Below, one piece after another: positions 8,451-8,803 of a DNA stretch of 64,000 nt. Within the stretch, counting starts at the first letter, position 1, and the number at the start of each line of letters is the position of its first letter. The stretch lies in the NCBI RefSeq assembly GCF_045037415.1, contig NZ_CP173438.1. One strand, given 5' to 3'. The notes below the pieces were generated by a model. That model did not search any database, was not told the origin of the DNA, and saw only the letters and a program-made list of their open reading frames with translations. The position numbers and the translations under genes were made by a program. The DNA comes from Escherichia coli (lineage in GTDB: Bacteria > Pseudomonadota > Gammaproteobacteria > Enterobacterales > Enterobacteriaceae).

Positions 8451-8803
8451 TATTTACGTTCCCTGAAATAAAGGAGACCCTACGCTTTCCAAAAGGAATA
8501 CGTATATAGAGAAATATAAGGTGTGCACTTTCGAATTTTTAATCCAACTTCAGCAGGCCGATGGATAGTATCCCGCCATATAATATGAGTAAATCCGCTG
8601 ATTTCCTGGAACGTGAGGAATATAACAATAGTGCCGTTTTTAACTAAATATCGTAAAAAATATTAGATATGATTCACGCTGACTCATAAGCCACAAATAT
8701 AAATAACGCTTAAACAAATTATCTGAGATATTTTAACATTCACAAAATCATTAAATAATGATACTTTATTCACAAAATTTATCCTTCACTCTGCTTTATA
8801 TTG

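Follow-up and report, generated by a model that had tools for sequence, protein, structure and literature searches.

The very AT-rich gap of 353 bp that lies upstream of a porin gene in an Escherichia coli chromosome (contig NZ_CP173438.1, positions 8451-8803 of the 64,000-nucleotide stretch analyzed here, which we call the window) is quite probably the regulatory DNA of that porin, a rafY-like glycoporin with a predicted CRP-dependent promoter, fused to the relic of the divergent control region of the sugar-transport operon frvABXR. Comparison of orthologous sequences points to an ordinary gene-control region: a probable class I CRP-dependent porin promoter and its leader, joined to the decaying control region of an operon deleted in this lineage.

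This reading provides a probable promoter, a probable CRP site and a leader for a porin found in about half of the sequenced E. coli, O157:H7 included, and whose carriers include 1,166 sequenced genomes without frvABXR. It also identifies an apparently orphan ORF as a yiiG pseudogene that reads into dead promoter DNA, and describes a 4.8-kb loss of the frv operon shared by about a fifth of the complete genomes. Beyond annotation, its relevance is little. The locus is a cautionary case: extreme AT-richness beside a variably present gene looked foreign and H-NS-silenced, yet synteny together with divergence shows an old locus with vertical descent.

The locus and its composition

The gene order is rhaA, rhaD and rhaM (plus strand), the porin gene (minus), the AT-rich block, an ORF of 184 aa (minus), fdhD (9446-10279, minus) and fdoG (plus). 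RefSeq names the porin product 'carbohydrate porin', and it annotates the ORF as a pseudogene without its N-terminus. Table 1 collects the features that we discuss.

Table 1. Features of the porin-yiiG interval, in coordinates of the window.
Feature	Position	Strand	Evidence or remark
rafY-like glycoporin gene, 464 aa, intact	7056-8450	minus	Pfam Porin_8 (glycoporin RafY), E 8e-155
Predicted 108-nt 5' leader of the porin mRNA	8451-8558	minus	Start deduced from promoter geometry
Predicted sigma-70 core promoter of the porin	8565-8593	minus	-35 TTTACT (8593-8588), 17 nt, -10 TACTAT (8570-8565)
CRP-like site TGTTA-TATTCC-TCACG	8612-8627 (8627-8612)	minus	2 mismatches to TGTGA-N6-TCACA
AT-rich conserved region upstream of the porin promoter	8628-8704		Mean pairwise difference 2.7%
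Hypervariable spacer between porin-side and frvA-side control regions	8705-8735		Variable at 16 of 31 sites
Distal part of the former frvA control region	8736-8772	plus	Conserved among Escherichia alleles
Scar of a 38-bp deletion	8772-8773		Left half of the frvA CRP-like site lost (TGTGC-N6-CCGCA in O157:H7)
Orphaned frvA promoter remnant	8773-8870	plus	Motifs with little or no change before frvA in 14 loci
Junction of the 4,791-bp deletion that removed frvABXR	8871		From frvA -18 to a point 19 bp short of the yiiG 3' end
yiiG (DUF3829 lipoprotein) pseudogene remnant, 184-aa ORF	8804-9358	minus	Pfam DUF3829

The block runs from the porin ATG (8450-8448, minus strand) to the stop codon of the 184-aa ORF (8804-8806), so that the original prediction, made from the letters of the window, had placed it exactly. 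It was also right to call the block very AT-rich: G+C is 31.7% against 50.4% for the whole window, and 27% in 8600-8803. To speak of long A/T tracts was generous: A/T-only runs reach 12 nt at most and homopolymer-type tracts 4-7 nt. The first 50 kb have 26 annotated intergenic gaps that reach 80 bp or more; the block is the fourth lowest of them in G+C, and the lowest of those with 200 bp or more, and thus it belongs to the AT-rich end of normal intergenic DNA and is not unique.

Constraint is unevenly distributed along the block. Among eight Escherichia alleles, the mean pairwise difference is about 2.5% in 8451-8704, 25% in 8705-8735, which is about the neutral level, and 6% in 8736-8870. 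The first of these segments is about ten-fold more conserved between Escherichia alleles than synonymous sites (porin dS 0.23). A difference this low indicates that some 250 bp next to the porin are constrained.

A predicted promoter for the porin

When 16 orthologous upstream regions are placed in register, a series of islands stands out: TGTTA-N5-CTCAC, 19 nt, TTTAC(A/T), 17 nt, TAnTAn, 6 nt, and GCCTG. The geometry from the -35 hexamer to GCCTG is kept in all 16, and the spacer sequences vary. In the window, the conserved GCCTG is found at 8558-8554, 6 nt past the -10, where we predict the start. The two hexamers make only 8 of 12 matches (4/6 and 4/6), which is under the 9/12 cut-off of our generic promoter scan. 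The proposed reading of the block as the porin gene's promoter region is supported.

A scan with the CRP consensus, separate from the promoter alignment and run once the promoter had already been placed, matched CGTGAGGAATATAACA at 8612-8627, which is exactly the invariant island. A class I CRP-dependent promoter has its hexamers separated by 17 +/- 1 nt upstream of the gene, and a CRP site centered near -61.5, -71.5, -82.5 or -92.5 of the start. Here we find both: the CRP-like site is centered at -61.5 relative to the predicted start and lies 18 nt before the -35. Of 33 orthologous loci, spread over many enterobacterial genera, 29 have TGTTA and TCAC unchanged and at this fixed distance of 18 nt. 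Kluyvera orthologues, for instance, have the CRP-like site, 18 nt, TTTACG, 17 nt and a -10-like hexamer, and Enterobacter, Trabulsiella and further genera have the site before their orthologues too. Matches to the CRP consensus with two mismatches are common by chance (21 found in the window versus 26 expected), therefore the weight of this site lies in its invariance and spacing, and not in the match. In every genus the upstream half-site misses the second G of TGTGA, so it might be a protein other than CRP that uses the invariant TGTTA.

The four loci without the CRP-like site belong to Klebsiella and Raoultella, the only genera in which we see the porin orthologue in a plasmid-type operon context. 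We examined that context for one of the four loci, in Klebsiella spallanzanii (L018, 84-5380), where the porin closes a raf-like (rafA-rafB-like) cluster next to rhaM, behind genes for an alpha-galactosidase, a LacY-type permease and an acetyltransferase.

The closest architecture that we can compare with is that of lac P1, a class I CRP-dependent promoter with the CRP center at -61.5 and a spacing of 17+6+18+6+6. The porin promoter has 18+6+17+6+6, which is the same sum, and the same order of elements: a 16-bp CRP site, 17-18 nt, a -35 of the form TTTAC(A/T), 17-18 nt, the -10, and a start 7 nt later. It differs from lac P1 in that its upstream half-site is TGTTA and not TGTGA in every genus, its -10 is TACTAT, and its start is a predicted one. 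No repressor operator is evident at the predicted porin start site.

As a mechanism, we propose that the porin would be transcribed from the sigma-70 promoter at 8593-8565 with a start near 8558, that cAMP-CRP bound at TGTTA-N6-TCACG (8627-8612) and centered at -61.5 would activate this promoter, and that the porin mRNA would carry a leader of 108 nt. A class I promoter laid out like lac P1 would let the cell produce the porin when preferred sugars run short.

The predicted leader has a mean pairwise difference of 2.6% among the eight Escherichia alleles, and it is identical in the window and in the O157:H7 allele despite the porin dS of 0.23 between them. It includes a Shine-Dalgarno-like AGGGA at 8464-8460. 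The final ~30 nt upstream of the porin ATG are kept across genera, and so is the block around 8550-8670. Folding the leader RNA gives nothing significant (z-score -0.86).

Could the porin be transcribed from closer to the gene? Near the gene, the generic scan scores highest on the minus strand for TTAAAA-18-TATATT (8542 to 8513, 9/12), in a region that is identical in the window and in O157:H7. It would produce a leader of ~55 nt, and would leave the upstream element as the site of a remote regulator. We find this arrangement unlikely. The number of hits of the generic scan is that expected from shuffled sequences (4 vs 4.1), this proximal candidate is not conserved beyond Escherichia, and in the divergent Escherichia allele E69 a 16-bp insertion falls inside its spacer. 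The upstream promoter, in contrast, keeps its spacing in 29 loci.

We also discarded two other elements near the predicted CRP-dependent promoter. The sequence TGtTATATT (8627-8619) can be read as an extended -10, but Enterobacter, Kluyvera and others have TGTTATCTC in its place, which makes a poor -10, and a CRP site fits better. A 29-nt imperfect inverted repeat, with one arm at 8601-8629 and the other at 8441-8469, might form a duplex that masks the ribosome-binding site; the duplex is stable in Escherichia (-20 kcal/mol, z-score -3.4), but it is not conserved beyond that genus, with z-scores of about 0 in other genera. That the arm 8601-8629 lies upstream of the predicted start is a further ground to reject the long-range pairing.

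Farther upstream, the conserved ~80 bp of AT-rich DNA at 8628-8704 could bind further regulators or nucleoid proteins; binding of further proteins is probable in our proposed mechanism, and H-NS is a reasonable candidate. Its core AAATATCGTAAAAAATATTAGATAT (8645-8669) is kept in Citrobacter too.

Known glycoporin genes suggest what else might be expected of such a region. The genes lamB, scrY and chiP encode catabolite-controlled outer-membrane glycoporins and have sizeable leaders, and the leaders of chiP and ompA are targeted by a trans-acting sRNA. The block differs from lamB, scrY and chiP in that we could identify for it neither a specific activator of the MalT kind nor a repressor operator, nor a pairing site for an sRNA. 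We give a small probability to the idea that the imperfect TGTTA-N6-TCACG, the ~80 bp upstream of it and the 108-nt leader together form a dedicated control module for the glycoporin, with either a second regulator that shares or replaces CRP, or a leader targeted by a trans-acting sRNA. If true, it would explain the ~250 bp of noncoding conservation, even in lineages without frvR.

The relic of the frvA control region

In O157:H7 and many other strains, the porin is followed by a gap of 477 bp, by frvA-frvB-frvX-frvR on the opposite strand, and then by yiiG and fdhD. Using blastn against O157:H7, positions 8301-8871 of the window correspond to 1674-2282 of that locus (L004), and 8871-9219 to 7074-7422. 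The first match takes in the 5' end of the porin and nearly the whole porin-frvA gap, minus 38 bp at 8772/8773. The junction at 8871 has a TCAT-type repeat and is common to HH97, 21AR0173 and ST70. The collinear arrangement without frv (delta-frv) is present in 1,166 of 5,426 complete genomes.

The 4,791-bp deletion fused the block to a decayed yiiG, therefore the final 67 bases of the 184-aa ORF (8804-8870), that is its last 22 codons, are former frvA promoter DNA. Since this is former noncoding DNA from upstream of frvA that is read through after the deletion, the ancestral noncoding block is really 8451-8870, and the right-hand boundary at 8803 is an artefact. Relative to O157:H7, yiiG has suffered two other deletions, one of 125 bp at the repeat GTTTTCCCTT (9210-9219) and one of 470 bp at AACGCCAC (9351-9358), which makes three deletions that shaped it, each at a short repeat. 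HH97 and 21AR0173 have the 470-bp deletion too, but not the 125-bp one, which is therefore more recent; it is specific to the sub-lineage of the window.

How much of the frvA control region is left? When the DNA that precedes frvA is aligned for 14 loci of several genera, it shows a CRP-like site (TGTGn-N6-nCACA), an inverted repeat (TGTCAC-N8-GACATAT), a TACAAT -10, and a ribosome-binding site. Of these, the window keeps the inverted repeat at 8802-8822, as TGTTAC-N8-GACATAT (TGTCAC in the alleles that keep the operon, frv+), and the -10 TACAAT at 8852-8857; the frvA Shine-Dalgarno and ATG are deleted. The remnant now points antisense into the yiiG remnant. The 38-bp deletion is found in all delta-frv alleles examined, including those of HH97, 21AR0173 and ST70. 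Still farther from the former gene, we find a palindrome TCATTA-AA-TAATGA at 8747-8760, a CRP-like match TGATACTTTATTCACA at 8759-8774 with 2 mismatches to the CRP consensus, and a direct repeat ATTCACAAAAT at 8738 and 8768. A divergent control region has two opposed units, and frv+ alleles have them, with 477 bp between porin and frvA. The window has lost the frvA side from -18 onward and keeps only a relic. From 8705 onward the DNA would have no gene left to control and would be drifting, with a -10 and an operator-like repeat still present. Searching the literature on frv regulation, we found nothing useful.

With three deletions, a 38-bp scar and a pseudogene at its border, the whole block might be taken for functionless debris from the frv deletion, even more so when the delta-frv alleles carry substitutions in the conserved frvA motifs (TGTCAC to TGTTAC, for example). 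We consider this very unlikely for the block as a whole, since the description fits about 8705-8870 only. The 8451-8704 segment is as conserved in delta-frv as in frv+ alleles, and the porin is intact with a dN/dS of 0.05.

The K-12 allele offers a comparison from the opposite side. The 300 bp upstream of frvA in K-12 MG1655 (L005 6825-7124, the rhaM-frvA gap) have a CRP-like site, TGTCAT-N8-GACATAT and a TACAAT -10, as in the porin-bearing alleles. K-12 differs in that it has frv, and is without the porin and the whole porin-side half, and in the window the gene that this region controlled is gone. The frvA-proximal 190 bp of K-12 are ~70% identical to porin-bearing alleles and frvA is ~97% identical, with a sharp step of divergence at the frvA start.

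Is the block foreign DNA silenced by H-NS?

The original prediction was of a horizontally acquired promoter region under H-NS silencing. On such a view, H-NS would polymerize over the block and keep the porin off. We find this possible at best, and doubtful. Composition is what speaks for it: A+T is 68% over the 353 bp and 73% over 8600-8803, TpA steps reach 11% versus 4.5%, and the G+C of the porin gene itself is 45%, below the window mean. A xenogeneic H-NS target is expected to have A+T well above the mean over a few hundred bp, and the block does, with only 0.1% of all 353-bp windows of the stretch as low in G+C. Variable presence adds to it, as the porin with its block is found in 2,545 of 5,426 complete E. 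coli genomes (47%), and in some strains an IS1 has inserted into the block. These strains include 1579 (L003 3743-4440, equivalent to ~8678 in the window), in which IS1 sits between the porin promoter and frvA, and AVS0543 (H31).

Such a target is also expected to be of foreign origin, and this is contradicted by the comparative data. Porin orthologues of 66-85% identity adjoin rhaM in Kluyvera, Citrobacter, Klebsiella, Raoultella, Enterobacter, Trabulsiella, Superficieibacter and Pseudocitrobacter, and in several of these at least eight genera frvA is the divergent neighbor of the porin, as it is in E. coli. Between the window and O157:H7, the porin dS of 0.23 is like those of the neighboring core genes (0.12 for rhaD, 0.25 for rhaM, and 0.19 for fdhD). 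No integrase, IS, tRNA or mobility genes flank the porin locus at its borders. A horizontal origin is thus unsupported, because the porin adjoins rhaM across genera, and the locus is old and vertically inherited. The porin is also under strong purifying selection, with a dN/dS of 0.03-0.05 against its E. coli, Kluyvera and Citrobacter orthologues.

Porin presence in E. coli is still polymorphic, and loss is the best reading of this patchiness. In K-12, no similarity to the porin-bearing allele is detectable over the first 111 bp of the rhaM-frvA gap, hence a deletion scar was not found there; it is from cross-genus synteny only that we infer a loss of the porin in K-12-type lineages.

The high-affinity H-NS nucleation motif TCGATAAATT, which we use as a proxy, is not enriched: it matches once, with 2 mismatches, and 40% of windows of this size hold as many matches or more. 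The A-tracts are without helical phasing. The check on DNA curvature that had been suggested gives no support, as AA/TT periodicity at 9.5-11.5 bp, again only a proxy, stays within that of shuffled sequences. Finally, 250 bp under purifying selection with a specific promoter architecture argue against this view. In the literature we found no H-NS ChIP or hns-mutant data for any porin-bearing allele; one paper on frvA and H-NS lists frvA in a table of RNAP occupancy, without H-NS data for frvA. From composition only, H-NS binding to the block is plausible, and it could coexist with the CRP-dependent promoter that we favor.

Does the block encode a small RNA?

The block was also said to be a potential source of a small RNA. 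It is a long stretch of conserved noncoding DNA, and the orphaned -10 at 8852-8857 could still fire, which are the two arguments for an independent RNA gene. We regard such a gene as extremely unlikely. An sRNA gene is expected to have its own promoter and an intrinsic terminator bounding 50-300 nt, and the generic promoter/terminator scan finds no terminator-like site within 8451-8870. It is also expected either to belong to a described family or to have a conserved structure with covariation, and we observe neither. An Rfam search of the block reports no match even at E-values up to 10, and RNAalifold on 15 orthologous sequences predicts zero consensus base pairs on both strands of the conserved block. 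Fold energies in the block are within those of shuffled controls (z-scores -0.16, -1.5 and -0.86), and PGAP annotates nothing in the block in any genome among the matches listed. ORFs within 8451-8803 are of 29 aa at most. All this agrees with the initial impression that the block has no obvious hairpins or ORFs, and leaves the small RNA that was proposed alongside without a family, terminator or consensus structure to point to it. One ORF, 8561-8647 (28 aa, with an inner ATG at 8597), overlaps the conserved block and was set aside because its start and frame are not kept in Citrobacter.

Plasmid relatives of the porin locus

The gene rafY was described on the raffinose plasmid pRSD2 (Ulmke, Lengeler and Schmid 1997, as cited in PMC4809568 and PMC12987596), and 'rafY2' is, according to PMC4809568, the label of the chromosomal copy in O157:H7 genomes. 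The porin of the window is of the same family and length as the pRSD2 protein (464 aa, Pfam Porin_8), with 79% nucleotide identity in the coding region. They differ in context, as the plasmid gene is downstream of rafD, and the chromosomal porin has its own conserved promoter and no nearby raf genes in E. coli. We do not take the block as homologous to the 300 bp upstream of the plasmid rafY, since the only similarity is an AT-rich match of 20/24 with an E-value of 0.019 in a tiny search space.

Chromosomal DNA of this locus is also found on IncK2 conjugative plasmids. In pDR19cip_scFOS (NZ_OQ534118.1, L093 917-3661), a rhaD-rhaM-porin segment with the first 161 bp of the block (8451-8611) is fused to genes for a glycoside hydrolase of family 32 and an MFS transporter, on the same strand. 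The breakpoint at 8611/8612 falls right at the border of the CRP-like site, which leaves the plasmid copy with the core promoter but without that site.

Other observations in the window

In passing, we note several features away from the block. Upstream of the formate dehydrogenase gene, 10304-10502 has a sub-threshold Rfam match to the FdoG-1 5' UTR thermometer (32 bits versus a gathering threshold of 50, E-value 3e-5). The rhaA-rhaD gap at 5601-5866 is unusually GC-rich (57.5%), and its overlapping ORFs give repeated near-identical peptides, which suggests that it may hold REP-type repeats. After fdhE, 16178-19401 forms a low-GC islet (31-36% in its gaps) with two ribbon-helix-helix genes, a DUF6708 gene and hypothetical genes. 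Compared with strain SK1144, the window has five substitutions over its first 46.6 kb, and then an indel at ~46648, in the polA-yihG gap.
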